A stretch of 64,000 nt of DNA from an uncultured archaeon (lineage in GTDB: Archaea > Asgardarchaeota > Thorarchaeia > Thorarchaeales > Thorarchaeaceae): positions 40,522 through 104,521 of the forward strand of contig CAYHAA010000010.1 of assembly GCA_964354495.1 (NCBI GenBank), read 5' to 3'. Positions 23,729-45,584 of the stretch are shown here, piece by piece (the first letter of the stretch is position 1; each line of letters opens with the position of its first letter). Under the pieces are notes generated by a model that was given only the letters and a program-made list of their open reading frames with translations, was not told the origin of the DNA and did not search any database. The translations under genes were made by a program, and so were the position numbers.

Positions 23729-25513
23729 ATGAATGCGCTACTATTCCTTCTGATTTCTCTCATTGCACATGCAATCCCAATGCCGTTTTCAAGGCAATAC
23801 AGGAAACCAAGCAGTATGATCAAATGGTTGCCCATGCGTTTCATATGGGGAACAGTCGCTTGGGTCATCATCTGCCTGATTTTTGGTTCAGTACTTCCTT
23901 GGGCAATCCTTGGACTGATCATGAGCCTAGCAGCTCTTATGATGATCACGAGCGGATTTCGCCCCGGTGGTCGCTTTGAGGATATGCTAGAGGGCATCCG
24001 AGTTCCCTATGCGTGCATTGGTCTAATTATTCTGATAACAGTACCAACGTTCGGAGGGATAATTGGATGGACCTCAGGACTTGCAAATGCACAATATTTC
24101 GACTCCATGATCACAGAAACCGACGCTCCGCTCTTCACGAACCCCATCCCGGATAGAATGGTCAGGCTCGTCACAGAAGAATATGCGACGTATGTTGCAA
24201 GCCAGCACCTGTCACCCTTTGGATCCAACAACATAGTGGCAGCGGCACACATCACAATTAAGAACGGGACACTTGTGTGGGTGTGTACGATAGTATCAAC
24301 GAATGTTCTTGCTGAGAACTATGTCAAGGGCTTCATTGTTATCGATGCAAACGACCCGCAAACAGTCGAGCCATATCCAATCACTTCAACAACCATCCCA
24401 GTGGGAGAGGGTCTCTTCTGGGACAGAAACATCCAGTTCGGGAACTACTTGAATGACATTACTTCGTTGTATGAATATGCATATCCTACATGGGACCCCT
24501 CTGGTAATCTTGTCTATGTTCAGACACGAACGCCTCTTGGCTTCGATTTCGTAGAGGCTGCAACTGGTCCAATTATCTATGCGGAGAATGGCTCCGTCTT
24601 TGCGTATGATACAATCGCAGATACACCAAGCTGGGTCACTCAGGCATACTCTGAGGAATGGCTTGAACGGCAGATAACAAGATGGGGTAGCTTCAGAAGA
24701 GGAAGCGGATTCGACCTCTTTGCTGGTGGACTCTTGTGGTTTATCGCACCATCGAACGATAGGCTCGAGATGACAGAGGATACGAGATACATACTGAATC
24801 CAGACACGGAACGAATCGAGGCTTTCTTAGCTGTGAATCCAGTGAATGCACCCAATACTCTCGCAGGAGTGCTAAGAGCAACACAGAATGAGGTGTTTTA
24901 TCACGACCTTAGCGGAGAAGGGTACGTCAGCGGTTCAACTGCAGTAGCTAATGTAATTGCCGCGATAGGGCCACCTGCGAGCGGCAACTATTATGGGGCA
25001 ATGCCGCTTCTCTACCCTGTCGTCATCAATTCAACAGTCACAAAATGGACATGGTACACACCCATCTATTGGACTGATGCGTACTACTCCGAGGATCTTG
25101 GAGACTACGTTGCCTCCAACATGAGACTTCATGCTCTTGGTATGGTCGATGCATCGAACATAGATCGATACGTCTGGCTTCCGCTAGGTGGAGCATTATC
25201 AGGTGAGAATCTCGTACATCAGGTCAGAACCGATTACGTCGCTCTTCTTGGTGGCGAAATCGAAGAGGAGCCCTCAGACACCTTCATCATCACTGCAAAT
25301 GTGACAGGTACGACCTCTTTTGTACAAAATAGTCAGCAGCATGTACTGTTGCGGACAGACAACGTCACCTATGAGTTCTTGGAGGGTGCACAGGCTTGGA
25401 TGAATACGACGGACTGGTACACTCTTCTGTTCCTCGATGTGGGCGATAACTTCACAGCAACAGTCCTCCAAGTCGGAGATGTCTACAGAATCATCGCAAT
25501 CGTCAAGAACTAG
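23729..25513 (+). CDS. membrane protein with four to five N-terminal transmembrane helices and a large extracellular domain, hypothetical
   Basis: Hydrophobic helices in the first roughly 120 aa are followed by about 470 aa of Thr/Tyr-rich, non-hydrophobic sequence. Confidence 0.5.
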   Translation: MNALLFLLISLIAHAIPMPFSRQYRKPSSMIKWLPMRFIWGTVAWVIICLIFGSVLPWAILGLIMSLAALMMITSGFRPGGRFEDMLEGIRVPYACIGLIILITVPTFGGIIGWTSGLANAQYFDSMITETDAPLFTNPIPDRMVRLVTEEYATYVASQHLSPFGSNNIVAAAHITIKNGTLVWVCTIVSTNVLAENYVKGFIVIDANDPQTVEPYPITSTTIPVGEGLFWDRNIQFGNYLNDITSLYEYAYPTWDPSGNLVYVQTRTPLGFDFVEAATGPIIYAENGSVFAYDTIADTPSWVTQAYSEEWLERQITRWGSFRRGSGFDLFAGGLLWFIAPSNDRLEMTEDTRYILNPDTERIEAFLAVNPVNAPNTLAGVLRATQNEVFYHDLSGEGYVSGSTAVANVIAAIGPPASGNYYGAMPLLYPVVINSTVTKWTWYTPIYWTDAYYSEDLGDYVASNMRLHALGMVDASNIDRYVWLPLGGALSGENLVHQVRTDYVALLGGEIEEEPSDTFIITANVTGTTSFVQNSQQHVLLRTDNVTYEFLEGAQAWMNTTDWYTLLFLDVGDNFTATVLQVGDVYRIIAIVKN

Positions 25514-26800: not shown

Positions 26801-27124
26801 TCATGAGAGTAGCCTGAAACGAAGTAGATTCGATCTGTCAGGAGCGACTTCGACAGGATCTCCAATCTCAGGCTTTGAATCATCTTTGCTGCCAGCTAAG
26901 CATAATACGACTGCGCCTTGGTCCAGCTCCACCAGAGCCATCGTCAACGGGGGAGTGAATCCTTCGGGAGGCATCTCTAGAGTTGTGTGGCTGAGAATGG
27001 TGCCCTCGCCGTTGATCTTCTGTTTGACCATCTCTCCTGCGGCCTTTCCGCAATATGGACAGATGTCACGTGGCGGAACGATTGTTCGAGAACAGCGCTT
27101 GCAATGAGAGGCTTGAATCTTCAT
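26801..27124 (-). CDS. DUF35 OB-fold/zinc-ribbon protein (thiolase-associated)
   Basis: CKRCSRTIVPPRDICPYCG rubredoxin-like zinc ribbon followed by an OB-fold-like segment. This family normally sits next to archaeal thiolase genes. Confidence 0.65.
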   Translation of the reverse strand: MKIQASHCKRCSRTIVPPRDICPYCGKAAGEMVKQKINGEGTILSHTTLEMPPEGFTPPLTMALVELDQGAVVLCLAGSKDDSKPEIGDPVEVAPDRSNLLRFRLLS

Positions 27125-27202
27125 GATCTGTATCGACGAGATAGGAGACCTGAGTCTGTGAAAAGACTTCCGACAGGGCAGTCGGAAGCCCTGTCACATG
27201 AA

Positions 27203-30200
27203 TCATTCAGGTTCCATAAATGATTCTAGGAGGCTAATCAGTTCCTTCTTCGAGAGACGTTTCAGTTCGTCAGGGCTGACAGTAGCTTTGAAATCTGAAG
27301 GAAGAAGCTCGACTAGTGTCTTCTTGTCCAGTTTTGATAGCTCCTTAATGCCGAGTGGAACATCTGAAACGCCAGCTTCCGCAGAGCGGGTTATTGGTTC
27401 AGGAAGCAGCTCCTTGGAAGGAGTATATGAGTCAAGAAGTGACTGAGCCTCCTTTCGAGACATCTTTTCGAGATCCTCTTTGGCTATAGCATCTCGAATC
27501 TCAGGAGGTAGTCTATCCAGGATTTCCTGCTTAGTCAGTGGTTTCTCCACTTCTATCGCAGGCATTGATTCAGGTAATGTCGTAGTCGCGGGAGCTGTTA
27601 ATGCCTCAATGGTCTCCATCTCAACGTCTTCTGCCAACAGAGGTTCTTTCCTGACAGGTTCGGTCGGTTGGACCTCCTCAGCAACATGCAGCTCATCAGC
27701 AGACGTGCTAGTTGTCTCTATTTCCTCGATAGTCGGGGCCTCAGCCGCCCGGGGTACTTCAAGAGGTTCATGCACCTCTGAAACAGGGAGTTCGGCAGGC
27801 GGATAAGTGTCTGGCTCAGGTTCAGCTGGTTCAGTGCTAGTTTCTTCAATATGTGAATCAGCAGGAGCAGTGGCCGTTTCATCATATATTCCGAAGTCGG
27901 AGGGCTCAATATCGGTGATTCCTGCGCTGACTGCACCGTGTCTTCTGCGGGAAGCAATGAGTGCAACACCAATCAAACCGACACCCACACCGCCGCCAAT
28001 CAGTAGGAGGGTCATCGTATCTGGGGCAAATCCCGGAACAGCAACCCATTCAATCTCTACGCTCAAATTGGCTGAATCGAGAGCGGAGATTCCATACAGG
28101 CTGTCTGATATGCTCTCAACAGAGAAAGTGTAGTTGCCTGCAGTGTTCCTAGTGACGCTAACGCTCCAATAGGCACCTGCTGAGTTGTATGTCATTGCAT
28201 TGGTTGCACCAGTCAGAGATACCGAGCCACTAGTAAACGGACTCTCATCAAACTCGTATACGAGAGTGACTCGTATCTCTGTTGCAACTCCGACATCTTG
28301 GGAGAATGACGTCGCAGTGATTGAGGTCACCTGAACTCTGTCCCAGATGATCACCAGATCAGCAGCTGATTGTACGTAACTGCTGATTTCACCAAGTGAT
28401 GCAGAGATGATGCTGAATGAATAACTTCCTACGGTACTCTGAGTGACTGATGCCACATAGACACCACTGGATGGGATACAAGTGATGTCGCCTGTCATCA
28501 CGGCCACAACACCATTTGGTACGGTTACACCTGCGTTCTCAAGTCTTGCACTCCATTGGACCAAAGCCGTATCACCCATACCCAATCTGCTATGGTCAAC
28601 AGATACTGAGTAGAATTCAATTCGGTCCCAATAGACAGTGACTTCATTCGAATCCATATTGAATTCAGTTATACCGTAGAGTGCGGCATTGCAGAGAGTA
28701 AGAAGGTCAAACGATACAGCTTGGTAGGTAGCCTCGGTGACATAGGTTTCCCATAGGCCGGACCCGACATGAGTCAGTGCATGACCTTCAATCGCAAATG
28801 TGCCGGAAGTGACAGACAACGCATCGTACTCATACTGTAGACCGACTATGACTCTCACATTGTCGCCGGGGTCATGGTACAGCTCGTCAGCTGTGATTGA
28901 AGTGACTAGTACTCGGTCCCAAATGCAGTAGACAACATCATTGGAGAGGATGGCGGTGATTCCGAATGAATCATCCGCTGCAGAGAGGACAGTGTAGCCT
29001 TGTATCTGCGGCGTAGCGTACGAGAAGTAAGTGTTGTTCAGCGCGAGAGCTCCATCAAATGTAGCACCATCATATGCATAGATGGCGCTCACGTAGATCC
29101 CCGTTGCGTTGGCTCCAACGTTGACTCGCATATCAGTCGGATTGGTCATGGTGATGATCAGAGCATCCCAGATTGCCTGCACATCAGTTGTAGAATCAGA
29201 CCATTCTGTCAGCCCATGTATTGACTCTACAACTGAAACAACAGTGAATCCTGCAGATATCGGAACAGATGAGGTCTCCTGCCATCGCCAGTACGAGCCA
29301 CCGGCGTTCCAGATCAAGGTCCTTGATCCATTGAGCTGGATCAGCAATCCACTCTGAATCTCAGTTCCGTTGTATTCGTATCGTGCTCTCCACCATACTT
29401 CACAGTAGGAATTGATGTTGATTCGCAAGTCGACGACTCCAGCCAGATAGATCTCAATCCTGTCAGTGATGAAGGTGTCAGTGGGGCTGGTCGAGAAGTA
29501 CAAGTCAGTACTCCCTGAGCCAGCACCCTCAGCCACAGTCTTGATGGTGTAGGTGTTCAACCTGATGGAGGCAGAGGATCCAATGCTGGAGATACTGAAA
29601 CTGCCAGCAGCCAGGTCACCATTCCAACTGCCTGCAACATCATGGATAATCCAGACATCAGTCTCATTTGCGAGAGGGCTAAGACTGGAGCCATAGTATG
29701 TGATGGACCCGGACACGACAAGGTCGGTGGTATTCACATCACCATGGTCGTCAGACAATGATGGTGTAACTGAATAATCAAGACGTGTTTCCACATCCCA
29801 GTTCGTCTCGTAGGAGTCTGAATCTGAATCAGTGCCATCGAAGACAGACTGCTCCACATCAGAATCAGCAGTGTGTTCATGATCCCAACCTATTTTCAGA
29901 TACCAGGTGATACTCAGCGTATTCCCAGCTCCGACTGCATCGGACATGCTGCCGATGACTACAACTGCGCCACCCACTTCGACAGAGAATGTATCGGTCG
30001 AATATGTGTATCGCACTCTCCAATATAGAGTAACTCGATCGTCAGAGTAGAGCGATAACTCGACATAGCTAATGTCTGCAAAGCCATCCGGGTCACTGAC
30101 AGATGTAATGATGATGTAGTATCGATACCGAGCATATAGGCGGTCCGTATCATCTCCGTTAGTGAGTGTTGGAGCAGAATCATTCATTGGAGGATTGTTG

Positions 30201-33200
30201 GGTTCAGAGGACCAGGTAACCAGCCAAGCGTTCGTAGAGAATGCTGTTATACTATAGTTCGATTCGAATGAGATACTACGCGTTGTGTAGCTGTAGGAGA
30301 TGTTGTACCCAACATCAACGAAGAGACTGACATTAGCACCAATGAATGAGTGCCACCATGTTGAGTTTCTCTGTACGACTATCTGATATGATGTACAGGC
30401 GGCGTCATCATAATCAAAGATGACTGTAAGCGAGAAATTAGCTTGGACACCGTTCAAGGGAGTGGAATCATCAACTCCAATCGTAATGACAAGCTGATCC
30501 CATATGCAATATGTCGCATCATTGGCTGAGATCGCTCTGATTCCATGAGTTCCACCACTTGCTGAGTCCACAGTGTACCACTGAATCTGAGCTGTGCCGT
30601 AAGTGAACTGAGTGTTGTTAAGAATCAAAACACCGTCGAAAACAGAGCCATCATAGTCATGCACAGCACTAGTAACGATACCTGACGCATTAGTGTTGAC
30701 ATTGATACGTTGATCTGTGGAGTCACTGATGGTTATCGTAAGCGAGTCCCAGATACAATATGTTGCATCATTGGCTGAGATCGCTGTGATACCATGAGTT
30801 CCACCACTCGCTGATAGGACTGTATACCACTGAATCTGTGCTGTTGAATACGTGAATTGTGTATTATTGAGAGTGAGAGATCCATCAAAAGCCGACCCAT
30901 CATAGTTGTAGACGGCGGCCACTATAATTCCAGAGGCATTTGTATTGATGTCAATGTGCTGGTCAAGTGGTTCTGTGATGACTATCCTCAACGAGTCCCA
31001 GATACAGTAGGTCACATCGTTGTTGGAGATTGCAGTGATTCCAAAGGCACCACCACTCGCAGAACCCAGTGTGTACCACTGGATCTGAGCTGTGCCATAT
31101 GAGAACTGACTGTTGTTTAAGGTCAGAACACCATCGAAAACAGAGCCATCATAGTCGTAGATGGCGCTCACGATGATTCCTGTTGCATTCGCATTGATGT
31201 TTATTCGTTGGTCCGAAGGGTCTGTCAGTGATACAGTGAGTGAATCCCAGATGCAATAGGTCACATCATTCGCAGATACTGCTGTAATCCCGTAGGTTCC
31301 TTCACTAACGCCCTGCACAGTGTACCACTGAATCTGAGCTGTGCTATAAGCAAACAGTGTGTTGTTCAGCGTAAGGATTCCATCGAATTCAGCGCCATCG
31401 TAGTCATAGACCGCTGTGATGACAATTCCAGATGCGTTTGTATTGATGTTTATTCGCTGGTCCAAGGGATCTGTAATCGAAATTGTCAGCGAGTCCCAGA
31501 TGCAGTAGGTCACATCATTTGTCGAGATTGCTGTAATCCCATGAGTTCCACCTGAGACTGACTGTACTGTGTAAGCCTGCCTCTGTGAAATGCTGTAGGT
31601 AAATTGCGTGTTGTTGAGGGTTAGAGTGCCATCGAACGCAGCTCCATCATAATCGTAGGTTGCAGTCAAAATGATTCCCGTTGCATTCGCATTGACATTG
31701 ATTCGCTGATCCAAGGGGGCGGTGAGGACAATAGTCAGTGAGTCCCAGATGCAGTAGGTCACATCATTTGTCGAGATTGCCGTAATCCCATGAGTCCCAC
31801 CTGAAACTGATTGCACGGTGTAGCCCTGTTTCTGGGCTATGGCATATGCGAATTGAGTATTATTGAGGGTGAATGTGCCGTCGAATGCAGCACCATCATA
31901 GTCGTATATTACTGTTACCACGACGGCGGATGCATTGCTGCTTATATTGATTCGTTGATCAGTAGGGTCTGTAATGGCGATAGTAAGTGAGTCCCAAATA
32001 CAGTAGGTAACATCATTTGCTGAGATTGCTGTGATTCCATAAGTTCCCCCACTCACACCCTGAACAGTGTACCACTGAATCTGAGCAGTAGCATAGACGA
32101 ATTGCGTGTTGTTGAGTATGAGCATTCCGTCAAACGGTGCAGAGTCATAGTCATGGACTGCAGAAACAACTATTCCTGAAGCATTCGTATTGATGTTGAT
32201 GCGCCGGTCCAGAGGGTCAGTAATCGTGATTGTAAGCGAGTCCCAGATGCAATAAGACACATCGTTACTTGAGATAGTAGTGATGCCATAGACCCCGCCG
32301 CTCGCACTCTGGACACTATACCACTGAATTTGAACACTGCTGTAGATGAATAGAGTGTTGTTCAGTGTCAATATACCATCGAAAGTAGAGTCGTCATACT
32401 CATAGACAGCAGAAACGATTATTCCGGATGCGTTCGTATTGATATTGATACGTTGGTCGATGGGGTCAGTCATTATGATTCTCAAAGAGTCCCAGATGCA
32501 CCAAGTCATGTCGTTGGCCGATATTGCTGTGATTCCATAGGCCCCGCCACTCACGCTCTGAACAGTGTACCACTGGATTTGAGCAAGGGCATAGCTGAAT
32601 TGAGTGTTATTGAGGCCGACTGTACCATCGAAGGCAGAACCATCATAGTCGTAGAATGCAGTCACGACTATCCCGGACGCATTCGTATTGACGTTGATAC
32701 GCTGGTCAGAAGGATCAGTGACTACAACCGTGAGTGAGTCCCAAATACAATATGCTGCTTCATCAATGGAGACTGCTGTTATACCGAAGGCGCCACCACT
32801 CACTGAGCTCACCCGGTACCATTGAATCTGAGCCGTGGCGTAGCTGAATTGCGTGTTGTTCAGAGAGAGGACTCCATCAAATGCTGAGCCATCGTAATCA
32901 TAGATGGCACTGATGACAATGCCAGAGGCGTTGGTGTTGATGTTAATTCGCTGATCTGACGGATCAGTGATTGTGATTGTGAGCGAGTCCCATATGCAAT
33001 ATGTGACGTCGTTGCTGGAAATCAGTGTAATTCCATAGGTATCACCTGAAGCCGACTGCACAGTGTAACCTTGCCTCTGAGCTACAGCGTACACGAATTG
33101 GGTGCTGTTAATGGTCAACGCACCATCGTACGTGGTGCCATCATAGTCGTATACCGCAGTAACTACAATACCTGACGCATTGGTGTTGATGTTGATTCTT

Positions 33201-36200
33201 TGGTCAGCAGGATCTGTAATGATTATGGTCAGTGAGTCCCAGATGCAGTAGGTCGCGTCATTCACTGATATTGCAGTGATTCCATATGCTCCGCCACTGA
33301 CACCCTGAACAGTGTACCATTGAATCTGGGCTGCAGCATATGCGAATTGAGTGTTGTTTAGAGCTAGGACACCATCGAAGGCAGAACCATCATAATCATA
33401 AACTGCGGAAACTACGATTCCTGATGCGTTTGCATTGATATTGATTCGCTGATCGCCTGGATCGGTTATGGTTATTGAAACAGCGTCCCAGATGCACCAT
33501 GTCACATCGTTTGCTGAGATTGCAGTAATACCATATGTTCCACCACTTGCAGAGAGAGCAGTATACCACTGAATCTGAGCGGTGGAGTAGGCAAACTGCG
33601 TGTTATTCAAGCCGAGCGTGCCGTCAAACGGTGTGGAATCATAGTCGTAGGTAGCGCCGACTACTATCCCTGATGCATTCGCACCAATATTGATTCTCTG
33701 GTCCAACGGATTAGTGATTGTTACAGTCAGCGAGTCCCAGATACAGAAGGTCATGTCATTTGTCGATATGGCCGATATACCGTATGATCCACTGCTTATC
33801 GAAGGAATTGTGTAGTACTGTATTTGCGCGGCCATGTAGGTGAATTGAGTATTGTTCAGAGTCAGGATACCGTCGAAGGCGGAGCCATCATAGTCGTAGA
33901 TAGCAGAAACGATAATCCCGGATGCATTTGTATTGACATTGATGCGCTGGTCGAATGGGTCAGTGATTGTAATCGTGACAGAGTCCCAGATACACCAAGT
34001 GACATCGTTTGCCGAGATGGCAGTGATGCCATAGGTTCCGCCACTGGCAGACATGACTGTATACCACTGAATCTGGGCCGTGGCGTAAGAGAACAGCGTG
34101 TTGTTCAGTGTCAGGGTACCGTCAAACGGCGAGGAGTCATAGTTGTAGACTGCAGTAACCACAACTCCTGATGCGTTCGCGTTGATGTTGATACGCTGAT
34201 CTGATGGCTCGGTGACTGCTATTGTTAGCGAGTCCCAGATACAATATGTCATGTCATTGGTAGAGATTGCAGTGATGCCGAACGCTCCGCCACTCACTGA
34301 GCCGACTCGATACCATTGAATCTGGGCTGTTCCGTAGCTGAACTGCGTGTTGTTCAATGTGAGAATTCCGTCGAATAACGAGCCATCATAGTCATAGACC
34401 ACGCTCACAACAATGCCTGATGCATTGGCATTGATGTTGATTCGCTGATCCAACGGGTCGGAAACTGATATTGTAAGCGAGTCCCAGATGCAATACGTAA
34501 CGTCATTGCTGGAGATCACGGTGATGCCGTATGTACCACCACTAGCAGATAGAACAGTGTACCACTGGATCTGAGCGGCAGGATAGGAGAACTGCGTGTT
34601 GTTGAGTGCGAGCGTTCCATCAAAAGGCGCGGAGTCATAGTTGTAGACTGCTGTGACTACTATTCCCGATGCATTCGTATTGATGTTGATGCGTTGGTCG
34701 AATGGGTCAGTGATTGTAATTGTCAACGAGTCCCAGATGCAGTATGTTTCGTCGTTGACTCCAATGAGCGACACTCCATGGACTCCTCCAGAGGCAGTCG
34801 ATACTTCATATCCTCTTATTCCAACCGTGCCATAGTTGAAGACCGTATCATTAAGATTCAGAGTTCCATCGAAGCTCGTGTCGTCGTAGTCATAGATTGC
34901 TGATGCAACAATGCCTGTTGCGTTGGCACCTGTGTCAATCCTCTGATCGATCGGATCGGTGAGCGTTATGATTAATCGATCGGCAATATAGGTGTCAGTT
35001 GCACTGCTCGTATAGAATAAATCAGTGCCTCCTGCACCAGCTCCCTCCTCAACCACCTTGACCGTGTATGTGTCTAGACCTACTAGATTGTCAGCGTAGC
35101 AAGTGACATTAAAAGCCCCTGAGGTGGGAGTGAGATCGCTCCAAGGCCCAACGTTAGTCCCATATTCTGAGGCAGAAACCCAAATATCGACAGCTGTTGA
35201 AGAGGGCGCAACATTCACAGAACCGTAGTAGATGACAGTTCCTGTCAGTGAGAATGATCCATCTACATTGCCTCTATCTGGAGTCCCAGAGCTGTCGCTG
35301 ACATGTGGCAAAACAGAGTATTCCAGCCTTGTTTCAATGTCCCAGTCAACTTCATACCATGTCGTTGTTGATTCGTTCTGAGCGTCTTCGACATAGCATC
35401 TTGCATCTATGTCAGTAGAATCAGGGAAGTCCCAATCAATTGTGAAGAAGAAGGTGGCATCAATATCATTGCCGCTCTTGGTTGCCGATGAACTTCCTGT
35501 ATTCAATGTGACAAAGTTGCCACCATCGAATTGCTCTGAGAACACGCTTGTGTCCTCATCATATCTGAATCTACAGAACTCTGTTGCCCGGGTATCGTCC
35601 CAAAGCCCAATTTCCAGAAAGTCGATGTCTGCGAATCCGTTCTGGTCGGATACGTAAACACTGACCTGATACTCTGCGTATTGAGCGTACATGTTATCAG
35701 TATCGGTAGGGTTGTTCAGATAGGGTATCTGATCAATCAGGGGAGTATAGCTTGGGGTCCACGTATGCAATAGGACAGCATCAATCTCCCATGTGTCCTG
35801 TGTTGTATCTCCTGTTTCAGTTCCGCCAAGAAATCTGACTTCGAACGCCGAACTGGTCAGGTACGAAGAAACACTGACATTGTTCCACTGGTCCGGAGTG
35901 AGGTCCGCGAGGGCATTGATCCAAGTCCCGCTCCAGACATCAATCTTGATGTCTTCAGTCGGCCAGCCACCCCCTGTGACAGGGTAGATGCATAAGTATT
36001 CGTAGGTTTCATCGTAGTCTGCAGCAGTCCATCCAACCTCCAAGTCAAGTCCATAGCTCCATGATGAAGGAGTCCAACAATGAAGTAAGATACCCTCTAT
36101 CTGCCAAGAACCCTGATAGGCATCATCGGTCTGCATGCTGTCTACGAATCTGATTTCGAAGGATGACGTAGTGAGATAGCTAGTAACCGATACATTATTC

Positions 36201-37252
36201 CAGCCTGCCTGGACACCGGTGATGACAGTGACCCATGCTGCACCATCCCAGACATCGACATTGAGAGTTTCAGAATTCTGTATGCCGCCATAGATACATA
36301 GCGCTTCATTCGATTCTGAATATTGGGCACTGGTCCAGCCAACCTCGAGGTCCAGCTCGTGGTTCAGATTATTGATATTCGCATAGAGCCTGCGCCAAGT
36401 ATATGTGCCGTTAGTTGCATCAGTCGGGTCCGTTGGCGATGCATAGCTATTCGTCGTATCGGACTTACTACTTGCGCCAGTAGTAGACGTATAGTACAGT
36501 CTCATCGAGTTTGAAGCTGGGATTATCAGTATCCAGTATGTATTCCCACTAACTACTATCGGACGTGAGCCAGCTGCAAAGGTCAATGTCTTATCGCCGG
36601 CTGTCGCAGATACGCCGACTGCAGAGCTAACTCCGTTTGGCAAGATGTACCCAGACGAGTTTGTGATGATCCCCTTCGTGTTTATTGTACCCGTTGAGGA
36701 CCTTCCGTAAAACACGACGCTGGCAACTTCCCCCGTGCTACTTGCAGTGTAGACACCACCATACATATAGTTCGCGCTTACTGAAACATAGCTGGCACCA
36801 CTGGCGGAACTTCTGCCAAATGTGCTGGTTCCAGTATTTGTATCAGCCTCGGTTAGAGTGTCATAAGAGCCATCGAAGTCCTGCATTTCAGCAAAAGAAG
36901 AGTGTGCACCTATGTCCGTGGGCGCATGAAGGTTGGATGCTTGATCCACGAAGTCTTCATAATTAGTGCCAGCATAGCTTATGTTTCCCTCGGTCATCTG
37001 ATCGTAATTAGCACCATAGTCTTGAAGATACGAAAAGACACTATGCGAACCCCTATCACTAGGAGGATGAAGATTTGAGCTCTGATCAACAATGTCCTCA
37101 GCATTATCGCCTATTCCTGATACAGTATAGGAATTTGGCTCAGGAATCCCTCTCAATCCTCTAGGGGGTGATTCAATATCCACAATTGGACTAGCCAATA
37201 TAATACCAAGGAATGTTAGAAATAGGGCAAGTGTGAGGACACGTCTTCCCAT
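27203..37252 (-). CDS. giant (3349 aa) type-I surface protein with signal peptide, about 18 tandem 83-aa beta-sandwich-like repeats, C-terminal transmembrane helix and acidic cytoplasmic tail
   Basis: One uninterrupted ORF. N-terminus MGRRVLTLALFLTFLGIILASP. Repeats of consensus CIWDSLTITITDPxDQRININTNASGIVVSAVYDYDGSAFDGTLTLNNTQFSYATAQIQWYTVxSASGGTYGITAISANDVTY. Transmembrane helix LLLIGGGVGVGLIGVALIA followed by RRRHG. Confidence 0.85.
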   Translation of the reverse strand: MGRRVLTLALFLTFLGIILASPIVDIESPPRGLRGIPEPNSYTVSGIGDNAEDIVDQSSNLHPPSDRGSHSVFSYLQDYGANYDQMTEGNISYAGTNYEDFVDQASNLHAPTDIGAHSSFAEMQDFDGSYDTLTEADTNTGTSTFGRSSASGASYVSVSANYMYGGVYTASSTGEVASVVFYGRSSTGTINTKGIITNSSGYILPNGVSSAVGVSATAGDKTLTFAAGSRPIVVSGNTYWILIIPASNSMRLYYTSTTGASSKSDTTNSYASPTDPTDATNGTYTWRRLYANINNLNHELDLEVGWTSAQYSESNEALCIYGGIQNSETLNVDVWDGAAWVTVITGVQAGWNNVSVTSYLTTSSFEIRFVDSMQTDDAYQGSWQIEGILLHCWTPSSWSYGLDLEVGWTAADYDETYEYLCIYPVTGGGWPTEDIKIDVWSGTWINALADLTPDQWNNVSVSSYLTSSAFEVRFLGGTETGDTTQDTWEIDAVLLHTWTPSYTPLIDQIPYLNNPTDTDNMYAQYAEYQVSVYVSDQNGFADIDFLEIGLWDDTRATEFCRFRYDEDTSVFSEQFDGGNFVTLNTGSSSATKSGNDIDATFFFTIDWDFPDSTDIDARCYVEDAQNESTTTWYEVDWDIETRLEYSVLPHVSDSSGTPDRGNVDGSFSLTGTVIYYGSVNVAPSSTAVDIWVSASEYGTNVGPWSDLTPTSGAFNVTCYADNLVGLDTYTVKVVEEGAGAGGTDLFYTSSATDTYIADRLIITLTDPIDQRIDTGANATGIVASAIYDYDDTSFDGTLNLNDTVFNYGTVGIRGYEVSTASGGVHGVSLIGVNDETYCIWDSLTITITDPFDQRININTNASGIVVTAVYNYDSAPFDGTLALNNTQFSYPAAQIQWYTVLSASGGTYGITVISSNDVTYCIWDSLTISVSDPLDQRININANASGIVVSVVYDYDGSLFDGILTLNNTQFSYGTAQIQWYRVGSVSGGAFGITAISTNDMTYCIWDSLTIAVTEPSDQRININANASGVVVTAVYNYDSSPFDGTLTLNNTLFSYATAQIQWYTVMSASGGTYGITAISANDVTWCIWDSVTITITDPFDQRINVNTNASGIIVSAIYDYDGSAFDGILTLNNTQFTYMAAQIQYYTIPSISSGSYGISAISTNDMTFCIWDSLTVTITNPLDQRINIGANASGIVVGATYDYDSTPFDGTLGLNNTQFAYSTAQIQWYTALSASGGTYGITAISANDVTWCIWDAVSITITDPGDQRININANASGIVVSAVYDYDGSAFDGVLALNNTQFAYAAAQIQWYTVQGVSGGAYGITAISVNDATYCIWDSLTIIITDPADQRININTNASGIVVTAVYDYDGTTYDGALTINSTQFVYAVAQRQGYTVQSASGDTYGITLISSNDVTYCIWDSLTITITDPSDQRININTNASGIVISAIYDYDGSAFDGVLSLNNTQFSYATAQIQWYRVSSVSGGAFGITAVSIDEAAYCIWDSLTVVVTDPSDQRINVNTNASGIVVTAFYDYDGSAFDGTVGLNNTQFSYALAQIQWYTVQSVSGGAYGITAISANDMTWCIWDSLRIIMTDPIDQRININTNASGIIVSAVYEYDDSTFDGILTLNNTLFIYSSVQIQWYSVQSASGGVYGITTISSNDVSYCIWDSLTITITDPLDRRININTNASGIVVSAVHDYDSAPFDGMLILNNTQFVYATAQIQWYTVQGVSGGTYGITAISANDVTYCIWDSLTIAITDPTDQRINISSNASAVVVTVIYDYDGAAFDGTFTLNNTQFAYAIAQKQGYTVQSVSGGTHGITAISTNDVTYCIWDSLTIVLTAPLDQRINVNANATGIILTATYDYDGAAFDGTLTLNNTQFTYSISQRQAYTVQSVSGGTHGITAISTNDVTYCIWDSLTISITDPLDQRININTNASGIVITAVYDYDGAEFDGILTLNNTLFAYSTAQIQWYTVQGVSEGTYGITAVSANDVTYCIWDSLTVSLTDPSDQRININANATGIIVSAIYDYDGSVFDGVLTLNNSQFSYGTAQIQWYTLGSASGGAFGITAISNNDVTYCIWDSLRIVITEPLDQHIDINTNASGIIVAAVYNYDGSAFDGSLTLNNTQFTYSTAQIQWYTVLSASGGTHGITAISANDATYCIWDSLTITISDSTDQRINVNTNASGIVTSAVHDYDGSVFDGVLILNNTQFTYGTAQIQWYTVDSASGGTHGIRAISANDATYCIWDQLVITIGVDDSTPLNGVQANFSLTVIFDYDDAACTSYQIVVQRNSTWWHSFIGANVSLFVDVGYNISYSYTTRSISFESNYSITAFSTNAWLVTWSSEPNNPPMNDSAPTLTNGDDTDRLYARYRYYIIITSVSDPDGFADISYVELSLYSDDRVTLYWRVRYTYSTDTFSVEVGGAVVVIGSMSDAVGAGNTLSITWYLKIGWDHEHTADSDVEQSVFDGTDSDSDSYETNWDVETRLDYSVTPSLSDDHGDVNTTDLVVSGSITYYGSSLSPLANETDVWIIHDVAGSWNGDLAAGSFSISSIGSSASIRLNTYTIKTVAEGAGSGSTDLYFSTSPTDTFITDRIEIYLAGVVDLRININSYCEVWWRARYEYNGTEIQSGLLIQLNGSRTLIWNAGGSYWRWQETSSVPISAGFTVVSVVESIHGLTEWSDSTTDVQAIWDALIITMTNPTDMRVNVGANATGIYVSAIYAYDGATFDGALALNNTYFSYATPQIQGYTVLSAADDSFGITAILSNDVVYCIWDRVLVTSITADELYHDPGDNVRVIVGLQYEYDALSVTSGTFAIEGHALTHVGSGLWETYVTEATYQAVSFDLLTLCNAALYGITEFNMDSNEVTVYWDRIEFYSVSVDHSRLGMGDTALVQWSARLENAGVTVPNGVVAVMTGDITCIPSSGVYVASVTQSTVGSYSFSIISASLGEISSYVQSAADLVIIWDRVQVTSITATSFSQDVGVATEIRVTLVYEFDESPFTSGSVSLTGATNAMTYNSAGAYWSVSVTRNTAGNYTFSVESISDSLYGISALDSANLSVEIEWVAVPGFAPDTMTLLLIGGGVGVGLIGVALIASRRRHGAVSAGITDIEPSDFGIYDETATAPADSHIEETSTEPAEPEPDTYPPAELPVSEVHEPLEVPRAAEAPTIEEIETTSTSADELHVAEEVQPTEPVRKEPLLAEDVEMETIEALTAPATTTLPESMPAIEVEKPLTKQEILDRLPPEIRDAIAKEDLEKMSRKEAQSLLDSYTPSKELLPEPITRSAEAGVSDVPLGIKELSKLDKKTLVELLPSDFKATVSPDELKRLSKKELISLLESFMEPE
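30480..34990 (-). repeat. about 18 tandem copies of a 249-bp coding repeat, internal to the giant gene
   Basis: Identical 40+ nt stretches recur at exact 249-bp spacing. For example, GAGTCCCAGATGCAGTAGGTCACATCATTTGTCGAGATTGC occurs at 31491 and again at 31740. Confidence 0.9.
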
Positions 37253-37487: not shown

Positions 37488-38660
37488 CTAAGGTCGCTGA
37501 AGAATAGTCACGACGATATTGTTACCAAACCCACCAATGTTGTGAGTAAGACCAATACCCGGGTTATCTACTTGGAGCCCTTTGGGAGCCTCTCCTCTCA
37601 ATTGCGTGACAATGTCGCGTATCTGAGCTACTCCAGTGGCGCCAGTGGGATGACCTCTTGCCTTGATACCACCTGTAGTGTTGACAGGCATCTCTCCCCA
37701 GACCTCCGTTAGACCCTCCTTTACCGCATGAATTGCGCTCCCACGTTCGACTAGACCAATATCCTCCATATTCACAAGTTCGAGGATGGAGAAAGCATCA
37801 TGAAGCTCGCACACATCAATCTCTTGAGGACTGATACTAGCCATCTTGAAGGCTTTCTCTGCAGCTACTACTGAAGCATCAAAAGAGGTCAGAGCAGATC
37901 GATGTTGAACAGCAAGATAGTCGGTTCCATGACCAATACCTAGGACCCGTATTGCTCTATCTGCAAGACCATGTTCTTCCATCGTGCTTTCGGACGCAAC
38001 AACAATAGCTGCTGCACCATCGCTCGTAGGGCAACAATCGTACAGGGTAAGAGGGTCTGCAACAACTCTTGCTGTGTTCACCTGTTCAATGGTGATCTCC
38101 TTTTGAAAGTGAGCCAGGGGGTTCTTCGCTCCATTTCGGTGGGCCTTCACAGGAATGAGAGAGAGTTCGTCCCGCGTCAGACCATAGTCATGCATGTACC
38201 TACGGGCAATCATAGCCGCGAGTGCAATAGGCGTGGCACCGTATCGAGTTTCGTTTTCGTAGGACATCATTTTGGCCAGAATCCCCGATGCTACCCCTCT
38301 GTCGACCTCGGACATCTTCTCCACGCCAACCACAAGAACAAGATTCGCCATGCCTGCGGCGACCAATGCGAAGGCGGACTCGAAGGCACTCGACCCTGAG
38401 GATGGACCAGTCTCAACTCGAATAGCGCCTGCTGGAACCAATCCAAGGCGGTCCGCCAGTACAGATGAGAGATGTCCCTGGCCTACGAACTCATCGGGAT
38501 TCTGGGCACCCACGACAAGACGATCGAATCGTGCCTCGACCGTTGAGGAGTCTTCCATCGCCTCAAAGGCAGCACTCTGTGCGAGATCTAGTATAGAATC
38601 ATCGAGCACACCGAACCTTGTCATTCCCGCTCCAACGATATAGACAGGATCCACGATCAT
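37488..38660 (-). CDS. thiolase (acetyl-CoA C-acyltransferase, archaeal/SCP-x type)
   Basis: N-terminal VYIVGAGMTRFG and thiolase active-site Cys/His contexts. 390 aa. Confidence 0.85.
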   Translation of the reverse strand: MIVDPVYIVGAGMTRFGVLDDSILDLAQSAAFEAMEDSSTVEARFDRLVVGAQNPDEFVGQGHLSSVLADRLGLVPAGAIRVETGPSSGSSAFESAFALVAAGMANLVLVVGVEKMSEVDRGVASGILAKMMSYENETRYGATPIALAAMIARRYMHDYGLTRDELSLIPVKAHRNGAKNPLAHFQKEITIEQVNTARVVADPLTLYDCCPTSDGAAAIVVASESTMEEHGLADRAIRVLGIGHGTDYLAVQHRSALTSFDASVVAAEKAFKMASISPQEIDVCELHDAFSILELVNMEDIGLVERGSAIHAVKEGLTEVWGEMPVNTTGGIKARGHPTGATGVAQIRDIVTQLRGEAPKGLQVDNPGIGLTHNIGGFGNNIVVTILQRP

Positions 38661-41279: not shown

Positions 41280-41867
41280 TTAGGCTCTTCGGCGGTATAT
41301 TATATAAAGTACTGGTAGAATCACAGCCACAATGGTCACCGAGATTATGATTGAGATTTGAAGCGGAATGTCGGCTGTGGTGTTTGTTGAGCCCTGCCTG
41401 CAGAATGATATTCGATGCAAGCTGGATGTATTCCAGTTGTTGAGGCTATCATTTGCATAGAACATGATATCCCAGATAACTAAAGAGTTTGCTCCAATAA
41501 TCGTGAAATTCAGAGGCCAAGCTACAAAGTCGTCTGGATCACTTGTAAAAGCATCTCGACTCATAGAAACATTGTTCCAGTTGCTACTCGAATTGTTATT
41601 GTAACTTCCAATAACATTACTCACTCCATCGGGGTCTGTTACTCCAACTCTGAGTTCAAGGGTCAAGGTCACAGGTTCGGTGCTAGGAACAAGATCCATG
41701 AACACCCATGGAGTGAGTTTGAACGAAGGACCTGAAGACTGACATACCTGAAACGAGGATGACAGAGATGACTGATTGCTCACAGCTGCCCCTCCTGCAT
41801 TTGGCATCAGTGATGTCAGTGCAACTAGAATCAAAACAGCGTATCTAAAAGTCATTATCATCTTCAT
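41280..41867 (-). CDS. secreted Ser/Asn-rich protein with C-terminal transmembrane anchor, hypothetical
   Basis: Signal peptide (AVLILVALTSLMPNAGGAA), many N-x-S/T sequons, and a C-terminal hydrophobic helix followed by RRRA. Confidence 0.5.
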   Translation of the reverse strand: MKMIMTFRYAVLILVALTSLMPNAGGAAVSNQSSLSSSFQVCQSSGPSFKLTPWVFMDLVPSTEPVTLTLELRVGVTDPDGVSNVIGSYNNNSSSNWNNVSMSRDAFTSDPDDFVAWPLNFTIIGANSLVIWDIMFYANDSLNNWNTSSLHRISFCRQGSTNTTADIPLQISIIISVTIVAVILPVLYIIYRRRA

Positions 41868-41955
41868 GTTTCTCCCTTAATGTACGTCCTAAGCTATCTC
41901 TACACCTTTCATTATCATTTCTATATACGAGTTCTTTTTTCTTGCCTCCAATTTG

Positions 41956-43596
41956 TCACCAATAGCTCCGAGCATATGCCAAATACTGGTCCCAACTGCT
42001 ACAATGATAATAATGATATGAGAGGTCACGCTCCGATCCATATATATCAGGTACGCCACCTGAACTTTCGGCCATTCCTTCAACATGACCATACTCATGC
42101 ATTAAAATCCATTGTCTATAATTCTGAAGATAATACGAGGCTTCATCGCCTATTGCAAATCCAAAGCCCCATATTCCAAATCCCCAAATGTTGCTAGGAT
42201 CTATGTAATGAGCAAATAAACCATATACCCATCTGGTCTGTCCGATATGATTGAAATACATATCGCGATAGTTGGATTCGTACTCGTCCCCGTTAATGTC
42301 ATATTCAAAAGGAACGCTCGAACTCTGAACAAATGTCACTCTTCTGTAGTCATGGACTATCCAATATGCTTGGAGATAATCAAAGATAGAAACAGGTTGC
42401 TGATGATTATAGCTGGTTCCTCCATGAACTCCAACCATCCAATCAACTTCGACGTTCCTATAATAGTAATTGATCCACCAGTGCGTCAAAGCCTTTGGAT
42501 TCGTCCCGTAATTGCCATAGTACAGAACAAACTTGATTTCATGCATACCAGGTGTTGAATAACTTGGCAATTGAATATGATAGGTACCAGGAGCAGTAAG
42601 TGTGCTGTGAAGCTGACCGTCTACATAGACGTATAAGTATCTGTAAAACGGATCATGAACATTGACGCATTGTATGTCTAGGTATGTGCTAGGACCCATC
42701 GGTGTGCGGTATCTGAGTTCCGAATAGAGCGCGTTTTGAAAGTTCTCTTCTGTCGTATCATAAGGTTGACCCGAAGAATCAAAGAGGTGGTAATATCTGA
42801 GCTGCCATCCTTTATCGGATATACCTCCATTGTAGATTTCAAGTGTTATTGTCAACCATCCAGTGTAGATTAATGATATATCACCTTCCCAGTAGGGTTG
42901 TGTGCTATAGATTACTGTATTTAGTATCTGAACATATCCCACATACACCCGAAAGTATCTAGAGTAGGTATCTAGATCTCTCTCCACTCTTATGTGTGCC
43001 TTCATCCCGGACTGAATATATGCTTGATATGAGATCCTTGCATATGTGGACTTTGGAAACCAGTGCCCCTCCATTGCAGGAGTCACAGGTACTGCGCGCG
43101 TATTTCTATCATGAGGACCGAATTCCGAGCCCCAAGTATGTCCAGTGAAGTAACCACTGACAAGTGGAGTTGACTCTTTTTCTGATTCTATTATTATTTC
43201 TTGAGATACATTCATTGCTTCAGGTATACAATCAGCGGAAACAAATGGAGGCATTTGATTAATTCTCTCAATCTCTGGAGAGATTGAAGCATTCATCATT
43301 TGAACTTCCTCAAGTGTTGGGATTTTTGTTCCGAAATCCGTTTCTAGATAATTCAGGGTCGTAGGATCTCTCTCAGAGGTAGTTACCATATTGTTCCAAG
43401 GGATATCTGCATTCTGCGTAGTCATGGGACTTTCGGAAAACGCAGCTATTGCCAAAGCTCCCGGAATCTGATTGATAGTGCATACTAGCACCACAATCAC
43501 AACAATCCTGATTGCAGAAAGAAAACGATCCTTTTTGAAACTCCATTTACCAGTCTTGAAATTCATACCACATACTTCCTCAATCAATCGTTCCAT
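41956..43596 (-). CDS. membrane-anchored secreted protein with C-terminal HEXXH zincin-like motif (putative metallopeptidase)
   Basis: N-terminal signal anchor and a Tyr/Trp-rich body. C-terminal ILMHEYGHVEG. Confidence 0.45.
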   Translation of the reverse strand: MERLIEEVCGMNFKTGKWSFKKDRFLSAIRIVVIVVLVCTINQIPGALAIAAFSESPMTTQNADIPWNNMVTTSERDPTTLNYLETDFGTKIPTLEEVQMMNASISPEIERINQMPPFVSADCIPEAMNVSQEIIIESEKESTPLVSGYFTGHTWGSEFGPHDRNTRAVPVTPAMEGHWFPKSTYARISYQAYIQSGMKAHIRVERDLDTYSRYFRVYVGYVQILNTVIYSTQPYWEGDISLIYTGWLTITLEIYNGGISDKGWQLRYYHLFDSSGQPYDTTEENFQNALYSELRYRTPMGPSTYLDIQCVNVHDPFYRYLYVYVDGQLHSTLTAPGTYHIQLPSYSTPGMHEIKFVLYYGNYGTNPKALTHWWINYYYRNVEVDWMVGVHGGTSYNHQQPVSIFDYLQAYWIVHDYRRVTFVQSSSVPFEYDINGDEYESNYRDMYFNHIGQTRWVYGLFAHYIDPSNIWGFGIWGFGFAIGDEASYYLQNYRQWILMHEYGHVEGMAESSGGVPDIYGSERDLSYHYYHCSSWDQYLAYARSYW

Positions 43597-44912: not shown

Positions 44913-45584
44913 ATGAGAAGAAGGTCGATGTGCCTGCTATTTGTGCTTCTACTGGTCACTGCTTCGATTATCGGTGGCCTCTACGTGTTACTCACCCAAA
45001 CAGAGCTAGTTGAGTATGATGAAACGGTGGTCATTTACGAGGACACCTATCCTGCTGCGGAGAATATCTCGATCTATTACGATGTTTGCTTCCACAACGT
45101 CACATTCAACGTGGTTGACGACCCTGGATTCATGATTAGAGTCAACTGGAAGCTCACTGTCCTAGTCGAAGGAGCAAAGGGAAAGAATACAGGTCTTCAA
45201 GTGACTAATACCTCATCGGATGAGTTTGTGTACATTCAGATACTGAAAGAGAACCCCAGTGATGTATGTGCACTGAATGCAGGAGATGCGCGAGCGTTCG
45301 TGAATGTCACGATCAACAGGGCATATACGATTGATATTGAGGCGTCGGCAGGACATGGCAATATCAATATGACTGCAAGTAATGCAACGTTCCAGAACGT
45401 GTACTTCCATCATGGAATCAACTGCCCAGGCAACAATGGAATCAACATGACGGATTCAACGGTATATGGCGACCTTACCTGTCAGGTCTCGACAGGATAC
45501 TACTGGGTGAGGCTTGAGAATGTTGATATCGGAGGCACATTGTCATGTGCGCCAGTGGAACGTGGAACACTGATTGTACTCTGA
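44913..45584 (+). CDS. secreted hypothetical protein
   Basis: Signal peptide (CLLFVLLLVTASIIGG), Asn/Thr-rich body, several N-x-T sequons. Confidence 0.5.
   Translation: MRRRSMCLLFVLLLVTASIIGGLYVLLTQTELVEYDETVVIYEDTYPAAENISIYYDVCFHNVTFNVVDDPGFMIRVNWKLTVLVEGAKGKNTGLQVTNTSSDEFVYIQILKENPSDVCALNAGDARAFVNVTINRAYTIDIEASAGHGNINMTASNATFQNVYFHHGINCPGNNGINMTDSTVYGDLTCQVSTGYYWVRLENVDIGGTLSCAPVERGTLIVL

Follow-up and report, generated by a model that had tools for sequence, protein, structure and literature searches.

The window analyzed here is a 64,000-nucleotide (nt) stretch of contig CAYHAA010000010.1 from an uncultured archaeon of the Thorarchaeales (GenBank assembly GCA_964354495.1), and the subject of this report is a single giant gene on its minus strand (positions 27203-37252), which encodes a predicted surface protein with a head, a stalk of immunoglobulin (Ig)-like units, one transmembrane (TM) helix and a long cytoplasmic tail. 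A preliminary description of the locus, made from the sequence alone, had proposed a single 10-kb open reading frame (ORF) for a protein of 3349 amino acids (aa), and this is borne out by one unbroken frame of 3349 codons plus a stop codon, without a frameshift or an internal stop over 10 kb. By our own arithmetic, the probability that 3349 codons are free of stops by chance is (61/64)^3349, or ~1e-70. Head, stalk and tail were run as separate queries in the homologue searches, in which Thorarchaeota are represented by metagenome-assembled genomes (MAGs) alone.

Architecture of the giant protein

The coordinates of all features are collected in Table 1. Hydropathy analysis identified just two TM-like segments, at aa 4-22 and aa 3079-3100, in agreement with the signal peptide, single C-terminal TM helix and acidic tail (~250 aa) that had been proposed earlier. 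The N-terminal signal is probably of Sec type. As read from the sequence, the topology is type I, with a signal peptide, one C-terminal TM helix with RRR behind it, and every N-x-S/T sequon placed N-terminal of this helix. A total of 58 such sequons were counted, every one of them in the ectodomain, compared with 41 ± 5 in shuffled sequences. The ectodomain (27953-37186) carries a net charge of -252 and contains 0.3% lysine, and the full-length relatives are also lysine-poor (0.4-0.7%); as a guess, this depletion might reflect the avoidance of proteases or of glycation.

Table 1. Features of the giant gene and its product, with positions in the window
Feature	Position	Strand	Evidence or remark
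Complete ORF, 3349 aa plus stop	27203..37252	-	Identical to collection protein P0155 (NCBI)
Signal peptide-like N-terminus, aa 1-22 (MGRRVLTLALFLTFLGIILASP)	37187..37252	-	Hydropathy window aa 4-22; predicted local distance difference test (pLDDT) score <50 for aa 1-47
Head domain 1, aa 51-135, two 47-aa motif copies DxVDQxSNLHxPxDxGxHSxF...YDxxTE	36848..37102	-	pLDDT 80-95
Head domain 2, aa 140-297, variable cassette, all-beta jelly roll	36362..36835	-	AlphaFold2 (AF2); DUF4082-like in some homologues
Head domain 3, aa 300-398, first DLEVGWT...WNNVSV...FEIRF jelly-roll module	36059..36355	-	Alignment, AF2, fold match
Head domain 4, aa 403-505, second DLEVGWT jelly-roll module	35738..36046	-	Alignment, AF2, fold match
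Module E, aa 507-754, two Ig/macroglobulin-like sandwiches, DQNGFADI motif	34991..35734	-	AF2 pLDDT ~90, Foldseek
Array of 18 tandem 83-aa Ig-like units, aa 755-2248	30509..34990	-	Weak Pfam DUF7738; two conserved N-x-S/T sequons each
Divergent Ig-like unit closing the array, aa 2249-2345	30218..30508	-	CIWD register continues; same closing unit in homologues
Module E', aa 2355-2600, repeat of module E, DPDGFADI motif	29453..30190	-	Profile match E 1.6e-159
Divergent beta-rich unit, aa 2601-2692	29177..29452	-	Inside profile match covering aa 2364-2793; no Pfam match
19th canonical 83-aa unit, aa 2693-2775	28928..29176	-	CIWD anchor register, profile match
Three degenerate Ig-like units, aa 2776-3075, bounded by IWD/YWD	28028..28927	-	Weak profile matches; weak Pfam Ig_Pom152 / Y_Y_Y
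Single TM helix, aa 3079-3100, PGFAPD before, SRRRH after	27953..28018	-	Hydropathy; segment conserved in relatives
Acidic Pro-rich linker, aa 3101-3238, poorly conserved	27539..27952	-	Composition; unalignable, length varies among orthologues
Conserved C-terminal tail module, aa 3239-3349, two 34-38-aa units	27206..27538	-	58-62% identity to orthologue tails; profile searches
Terminator-like hairpin (9 pairs, 6 G-C) then TCTTTT	27161..27196	-	Begins 7 nt past the stop codon

The head was modeled with AF2 from aa 1-520 (19 sequences), and the resulting structure, with a mean pLDDT of 85.5, is all-beta from residue 51 onward. The two 47-aa motif copies of the first head domain are 45% identical (E 9e-17) and are kept in ~100 archaeal homologues, and the two DLEVGWT modules at the far end of the head are 50% identical to each other (E 1e-33). 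Because of the all-beta model and a weak agreement in Foldseek searches, the head is assigned, at the level of predicted structure, to jelly-roll modules of the galactose-binding-domain-like kind, that is, similar to carbohydrate-binding modules (CBMs) and lectins. The jelly-roll fold of the modules superposes on solved CBMs, and the likeness to CBM32, CBM29, CBM86, fucolectin and phage receptor-binding proteins is one of fold, the sequence identity being 6-14%. A Pfam search with the window protein gave no CBM match and no family for the head, and no Pfam family covers either the twin motif or the DLEVGWT module.

The second head domain behaves as an exchangeable cassette. In the Thorarchaeota relative P0001, which is 49% identical over the head query, the flanking modules are kept and the second domain is unrelated (E 1.0); in further homologues, this position is occupied by other domains, including those of the LamG/F5-8C type, and Pfam DUF4082 matches it in two of 19 aligned homologues and not in the window protein. 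The head as a whole (aa ~50-510) is covered by ~100 retrieved archaeal proteins from Bathyarchaeota, Woesearchaeota and others, some of which are fused to Pilin_N (PF07790, the archaeal pilin N-terminus), LamG, DUF2341 or PKD.

Behind the head, the anchor CIWD occurs 18 times at exactly 83-residue spacing and, counting the unit ahead of the first anchor, delimits an array of 18 units (aa 755-2248). Tandem Repeats Finder reported a single array at 30498-34747 with a period of 249, 17.1 copies and 68% matches. In total, the stalk comprises ~28 Ig-like domains: besides the 83-aa units (18+1), these come from the two-domain spacer module, which is present twice, and from several degenerate units. 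The spacer module recurs after the array, with 36% identity between aa 507-757 and aa 2355-2600 (E 2e-45). An AF2 model of aa 505-1003 (20 sequences; pLDDT 89.8) is all-beta and shows five successive beta-sandwiches, two of them from module E and three from repeat units. A Foldseek search of the Protein Data Bank (PDB) with this model returned 137 matches at E <= 1e-3, all of them chains of Ig, fibronectin type III (FN3), macroglobulin (MG) or cadherin-type domains; macroglobulin, Ig, cadherin, FN3 and Pom152-type domains and the S-layer protein SbsB are among them, and none is specific.

These results bear on several elements of the preliminary description. The duplication inside the N-terminal head, the two ~100-aa DLEVGWT domains (aa 300-398 and 403-505), the internal reiteration of an N-terminal-type module, located here in the module that follows the head, and the presence of two N-x-S/T sequons per repeat (18 of 18 units) were all confirmed, and the suggestion that the repeat is a divergent beta-sandwich is supported by the predicted structure and by the Ig/MG/cadherin-like chains found with Foldseek. 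Two further statements hold in part. The array does consist of 18 tandem 83-aa units, but they are not near-identical, since their mean pairwise identity is 70% at the protein level (48-83%) and 67% at the DNA level. Likewise, the repeat had not been recognized as a named domain, and indeed PKD, Big_1-13, Cadherin and CARDB gave no Pfam match at E <= 1 with either the whole protein or isolated repeats; it does, however, have a Pfam relative in DUF7738 (PF24880), a family of uncharacterized function. This family scores 109.6 bits (E 1e-31) against the whole protein and 27.6 bits against three units, with a cut-off of 24.6 bits, and matches one isolated unit weakly (14.5 bits, E 0.05, profile positions 43-97 of 103); several homologues are already annotated with it. 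With module E alone, PKD reached 7.9 bits, which is under threshold.

Between units, 41% of third codon positions are identical, compared with 80% at positions 1 and 2; identical residues are specified by different codons in 56% of cases, and the longest exact nucleotide run common to any two units is 29 nt. These figures indicate an old array under purifying selection, and the divergence of the units largely removes the concern that the array was collapsed or expanded during assembly. The identity of units within a protein (70% here, 79% in the orthologue on contig JAOUFI010000004.1, hereafter L002) exceeds that between the orthologues (54%), and a search for higher-order periodicity of the array and for unit-by-unit orthology with L002 found neither; it follows that the arrays homogenize or expand within lineages. 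The copy number differs between the two proteins, at 18 here and ~15 in L002. By analogy, arrays that homogenize or expand in this way behave like the stalks of adhesins. Both sequons of the unit are kept in 18 of 18 units here and in 14 of 14 units of L002, and in the AF2 model both lie in loops right after strands. The N-x-S/T sequon is in use in one cultured Asgard archaeon (PMC11284389), and the conservation of the sequons makes it probable that those of the units are N-glycosylated.

For both head and stalk, the closest homologues come from Candidatus Thorarchaeota/Promethearchaeota MAGs, in which they are annotated as hypothetical proteins. The combination of module E and unit array was matched in just 34 proteins, and all of those with a source name are from Thorarchaeota. 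Most database relatives of the giant protein are fragments on short contigs; the complete ones (2874-3821 aa) likewise start with a signal peptide and end with a TM helix and the tail, and the orthologous ORF of L002, of at least 3447 aa, follows the same plan, with a longer tail and ~15 units that measure 84 aa. Judged by sequence and gene order, these giant type-I surface proteins form a family that is conserved in Thorarchaeota, with orthologues of 2.9-3.8 thousand aa that share architecture and synteny. A PDB sequence search with the whole protein as query gave no match, and a search of NCBIfam with the whole protein returned noise alone (MerB, beta-helix, CCT), far under the cut-offs. Pfam matches to MerB, F-93_WHD and SCAB-Ig were rejected as noise summed over the repeats, with no qualifying stretch. 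No description of the giant-protein family was found in the literature, and no paper in the searched library mentions DUF7738.

The cytoplasmic tail and the HEAT-repeat proteins that carry its motif

The 249-aa tail contains 57 acidic (D+E) and 25 basic (K+R) residues, 6% lysine and no asparagine at all. It comprises an acidic, Pro-rich spacer of disordered appearance and, at its end, two copies of a short-helix motif. It had been singled out earlier as unusual, and this view is strengthened by the finding that its last ~115 aa are strongly conserved and common to other proteins. Conservation is confined to this end: a word-indexed search with the tail matched just two proteins, through the TM region and the terminal ~115 aa. 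The units of the conserved module follow the pattern +xxLLxxLPxEh+xxhPxExLxxh[ST]xxEhxxLhES, and the final unit is near-invariant among relatives.

A profile of the tail end was searched against 1.84 billion representative proteins and gave 27 matches in all, which fall into two groups. The first consists of the C-termini of giant proteins of 2507-3730 aa (one cluster member reaches 3821 aa), which carry a signal peptide, a TM helix, an acidic linker and one or two motif units. The second consists of soluble proteins of 390-530 aa with an N-terminal HEAT_2 domain, three to four copies of the motif, Lys-rich linkers and often HHH_5; these were found at E values of 1e-7 to 1e-6 across the full 34-38-aa unit. 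Four of five HEAT-protein clusters looked up had a source name, three of them Thorarchaeota and one Lokiarchaeota, and all source-named matches of the tail profile are from Asgard MAGs. A reciprocal profile, built from the units of the HEAT proteins alone, matched both tail units of the giant protein (38.6 and 21.5 bits) but no other sequence in the window. A protein family that combines HEAT_2, with or without HHH_5, with the tail motif seems not to have been described in the literature. In three MAGs, the genes for HEAT-motif proteins were located (L004, 8001-9596; L005, 8001-9380; L006, 5026-6195), and their surroundings are conserved among the three, with genes for DUF92, Band_7 (stomatin), NfeD and a divergent Rce1-like protein.

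No family matches for the tail were found in Pfam or NCBIfam. A relation of the tail units to the HeH/SAP/Rho_N type, an idea suggested by consensus patterns, was rejected, as neither a Pfam match at E <= 10 nor a match in the PDB profile search was obtained; LEM also gave no Pfam match for the tail at E <= 10. When the genome collection was scanned with the tail profile, two loci came up, of which L002 is genuine and L003 is not. The latter is an undecaprenyl-diphosphate synthase-like (UppS) gene of Bdellovibrionales (9707-10426) and was discarded as a chance match through 'DRLPPEVRDVI' alone; the distinctive core of the tail motif is therefore short.

Interpretation and alternative explanations

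The architecture combines a tandem stalk array (18+1 units and other Ig-like domains) with a C-terminal TM anchor, as in fibrillar adhesins, and the giant protein is a type-I Thorarchaeota membrane protein that is built in this manner and whose tail probably docks a cytoplasmic partner. At ~4 nm per Ig domain, the stalk would project the head ~100 nm or more from the membrane. The head, to judge from its modeled folds, would bind a ligand outside the cell, for which a glycan displayed by particles or partner cells is the most likely candidate, and the swappable cassette would set its binding specificity, while the sequons of the units would carry N-glycans. The tail motif would serve for docking and so connect the surface protein with a partner in the cytoplasm, and this partner may be one that is common to the HEAT-repeat proteins, or the HEAT-repeat proteins themselves. 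The occurrence of the same motif in the tail and in soluble HEAT-repeat proteins of the same lineage suggests a link of the cell surface to the interior. The roles in adhesion and as a carrier of N-glycans are likely ones, based on the conservation of the sequons and on the CBM/lectin-like folds of the head.

Several points weigh against this interpretation. The fold matches of the head and stalk are generic, with low sequence identity and multi-domain TM-scores of 0.1-0.25, and they indicate no ligand. The tail motif is a simple periodic pattern of capped short helices, its best PDB matches are artificial repeat proteins (HeliScrew4, E8), and the search assigned it to no natural fold, so that convergence with the HEAT proteins, rather than homology, is possible. 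Moreover, a motif that is common to the tail and the HEAT proteins is no proof of physical interaction. A more far-reaching version, in which the protein would act as an adhesion receptor in the manner of cadherin-catenin or integrin-talin, can be put forward by analogy and is rather improbable: a lectin-like head on a ~100-nm stalk would be combined with a tail that recruits the HEAT/HhH/Lys-rich protein, the gene of which is adjacent to a stomatin (Band_7)/NfeD operon, or competes for its partner, and would thereby form a lineage-specific link between cell-cell contact and the cell interior.

One alternative for the tail is that it has no specific partner and acts as an acidic spacer plus an amphipathic helix that associates with the membrane or with itself, its likeness to the HEAT proteins being a convergence of a helix-capping pattern. 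The artificial repeat proteins among the best PDB matches of the unit profile, as well as the result that Pfam and NCBIfam hold no family for the tail, agree with this. Such an explanation is nonetheless unlikely, given that the match to the HEAT proteins extends over the whole unit at E 1e-7 to 1e-6, that only 27 matches were obtained among 1.84 billion proteins with every source-named one from an Asgard archaeon, that the reciprocal profile picks out the two tail units alone in the window, and that the last unit has hardly changed among relatives. Even with an inert tail, the protein would still be a well-delimited archaeal example of a fibrillar adhesin. A different fate of the C-terminus would be that the TM region acts as a PGF-CTERM/PVV-CTERM-like sorting signal, with archaeosortase-type processing to a lipid-anchored product and a tail that is removed or present before processing only. 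PGF does stand six residues ahead of the TM helix, which is Gly-rich and followed by RRR; PGF is found in several relatives as well, and NCBIfam gave a weak match to PVV_CTERM (17.5 bits, E 0.0027). However, this score compares with a cut-off of 27 (NF051874), PGF_CTERM (TIGR04126) reached 9 bits compared with 24.5, close relatives have PPF, PPI or GPA in place of PGF, and such signals are situated at the extreme C-terminus, whereas here 249 residues follow, the last ~115 of which are 58-62% identical to those of the orthologues. PGF-CTERM sorting was rejected on score and position, and processing of this kind is very unlikely.

With regard to the ectodomain, many archaeal S-layer proteins are Ig-like arrays, and the giant protein might instead be a structural glycoprotein of the outer coat, either part of an S-layer or associated with one, and serve as an envelope scaffold rather than an adhesin. 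The membrane anchor at the C-terminus, the strongly negative charge of the ectodomain (net -252), the conserved sequons and the generic Foldseek match to SbsB are compatible with this possibility, to which we attach little weight. A length of 3349 aa and a long array that varies in copy number and is homogenized point to a stalk rather than a lattice subunit, and a distal CBM-like head with a swappable cassette suggests ligand recognition; on account of its size, the dynamics of its array and its head, an S-layer role is less likely than that of an adhesin. In addition, an ordered S-layer is absent in both cultured Asgard archaea, which belong to another Asgard class and display irregular 'complex surface proteins' instead (PMC9834061; PMC11284389). 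The least probable of the explanations considered is that the ORF or its array arose through misassembly or represents a pseudogene in decay. It is true that tandem repeats in short-read MAGs are apt to collapse or expand and that most relatives are fragments on short contigs, but units that are 67% identical in DNA and share at most 29 identical nt in a row, a strong signature of purifying selection, a frame without frameshift or stop across 10 kb, and full-length relatives of the same plan from independent assemblies all stand against it.

Genomic setting and comparison with known systems

The giant gene is flanked by a thiolase gene (37488-38660, minus strand) and a zf-ChsH2/OB (DUF35-type) gene (26801-27124, minus strand), the latter being followed by an acyl-CoA dehydrogenase (ACAD) gene; all four genes are on the minus strand. 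Archaeal thiolase and DUF35-type genes are usually adjacent, and the two encoded proteins assemble with HMG-CoA synthase into a complex. The 10-kb surface-protein gene lies between these two genes, and the downstream side is kept in two other Thorarchaeota contigs. The order on this side is giant gene, DUF35, ACAD, a 594-aa protein, aconitase-type small and large subunits and an isopropylmalate-type dehydrogenase, and it is identical in GCA_002825535.1 and in JAOUFI010000004.1 (L002), both of Thorarchaeota. The 594-aa protein (23729-25513, plus strand) is a predicted membrane protein without a Pfam match, and its length and its place beside the aconitase-type small subunit gene are kept in loci L001 and L002. 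Within the giant gene, mechanical ORFs of 108-115 aa are present on the antisense strand at 27480-28133 and 33824-34171 (plus strand), with no sign of being genes. Rfam and tRNA scans across the window gave no matches.

Elsewhere in the window, no paralogues of the head, stalk or tail were found. A cluster of predicted secreted/membrane proteins of 195, 546 and 223 aa (41280-43596, minus strand, and 44913-45584, plus strand) is rich in N-x-S/T and has no Pfam match; these proteins are unrelated to any of the three parts of the giant protein, and the local GC content falls to 0.42 at 42-44 kb, in this cluster. At 3022-6084 (minus strand), a 1020-aa fusion of an APH-type kinase, Peptidase_M23 and a class-III aminotransferase is encoded. 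In other organisms, a kinase and an AGXT2L-type phospho-lyase work in sequence on hydroxylysine or ethanolamine, and the fusion may represent a fused pathway of kinase and AGXT2L-type steps.

Models of eukaryogenesis invoke a close and durable contact of an Asgard host with its partners, and cultured Asgard archaea display irregular 'complex surface proteins' in place of an S-layer. The family described here supplies concrete candidates for Asgard surface structures together with a testable hypothesis of outside-in coupling. Three uncharacterized modules, namely the DLEVGWT jelly roll, module E and the DUF7738-type unit, are now placed structurally. Among prokaryotic surface proteins, it is unusual for the cytoplasmic tail to be long and to end in a conserved motif.

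The head is shared with non-giant archaeal surface proteins, which have the twin motif, the cassette position and the two DLEVGWT modules in common with the giant protein at 35-55% identity. These proteins differ in that they are typically ~400-1300 aa long and are without the DUF7738-type array and module E, and they are not among the 27 matches of the tail motif. With bacterial fibrillar adhesins (SiiE, Bap/LapA-type proteins and the Mobiluncus 51-Ig adhesin), the giant protein shares distal binding-type modules, very large size, a C-terminal anchor and long arrays of ~80-100-aa beta-sandwiches that are homogenized within the protein and variable in copy number. The anchor is a different one: in place of LPXTG, type I secretion system (T1SS) retention or an outer-membrane anchor, there is a type-I TM helix with a 249-aa tail and a conserved terminus. 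Furthermore, the stalk domain matches DUF7738 alone, and weakly, the host is an Asgard archaeon, and the binding role is a predicted one. With classical cadherins, protocadherins and Fat, it has in common a signal peptide, a chain of beta-sandwiches, a single TM helix and a tail whose terminal segment is conserved, and cadherin ectodomains are among the generic Foldseek matches of the stalk. In contrast to cadherins, no Pfam Cadherin match was obtained at E <= 1 and the tail has no likeness to catenin-binding regions; the resemblance is architectural, without evidence of homology. On its sequence, then, the giant protein belongs to neither the bacterial fibrillar adhesins nor the cadherins. 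Giant surface proteins with Ig arrays are already known; what is new here is an Asgard-specific family, with structurally placed modules and a long tail whose motif is shared with HEAT/HhH proteins.

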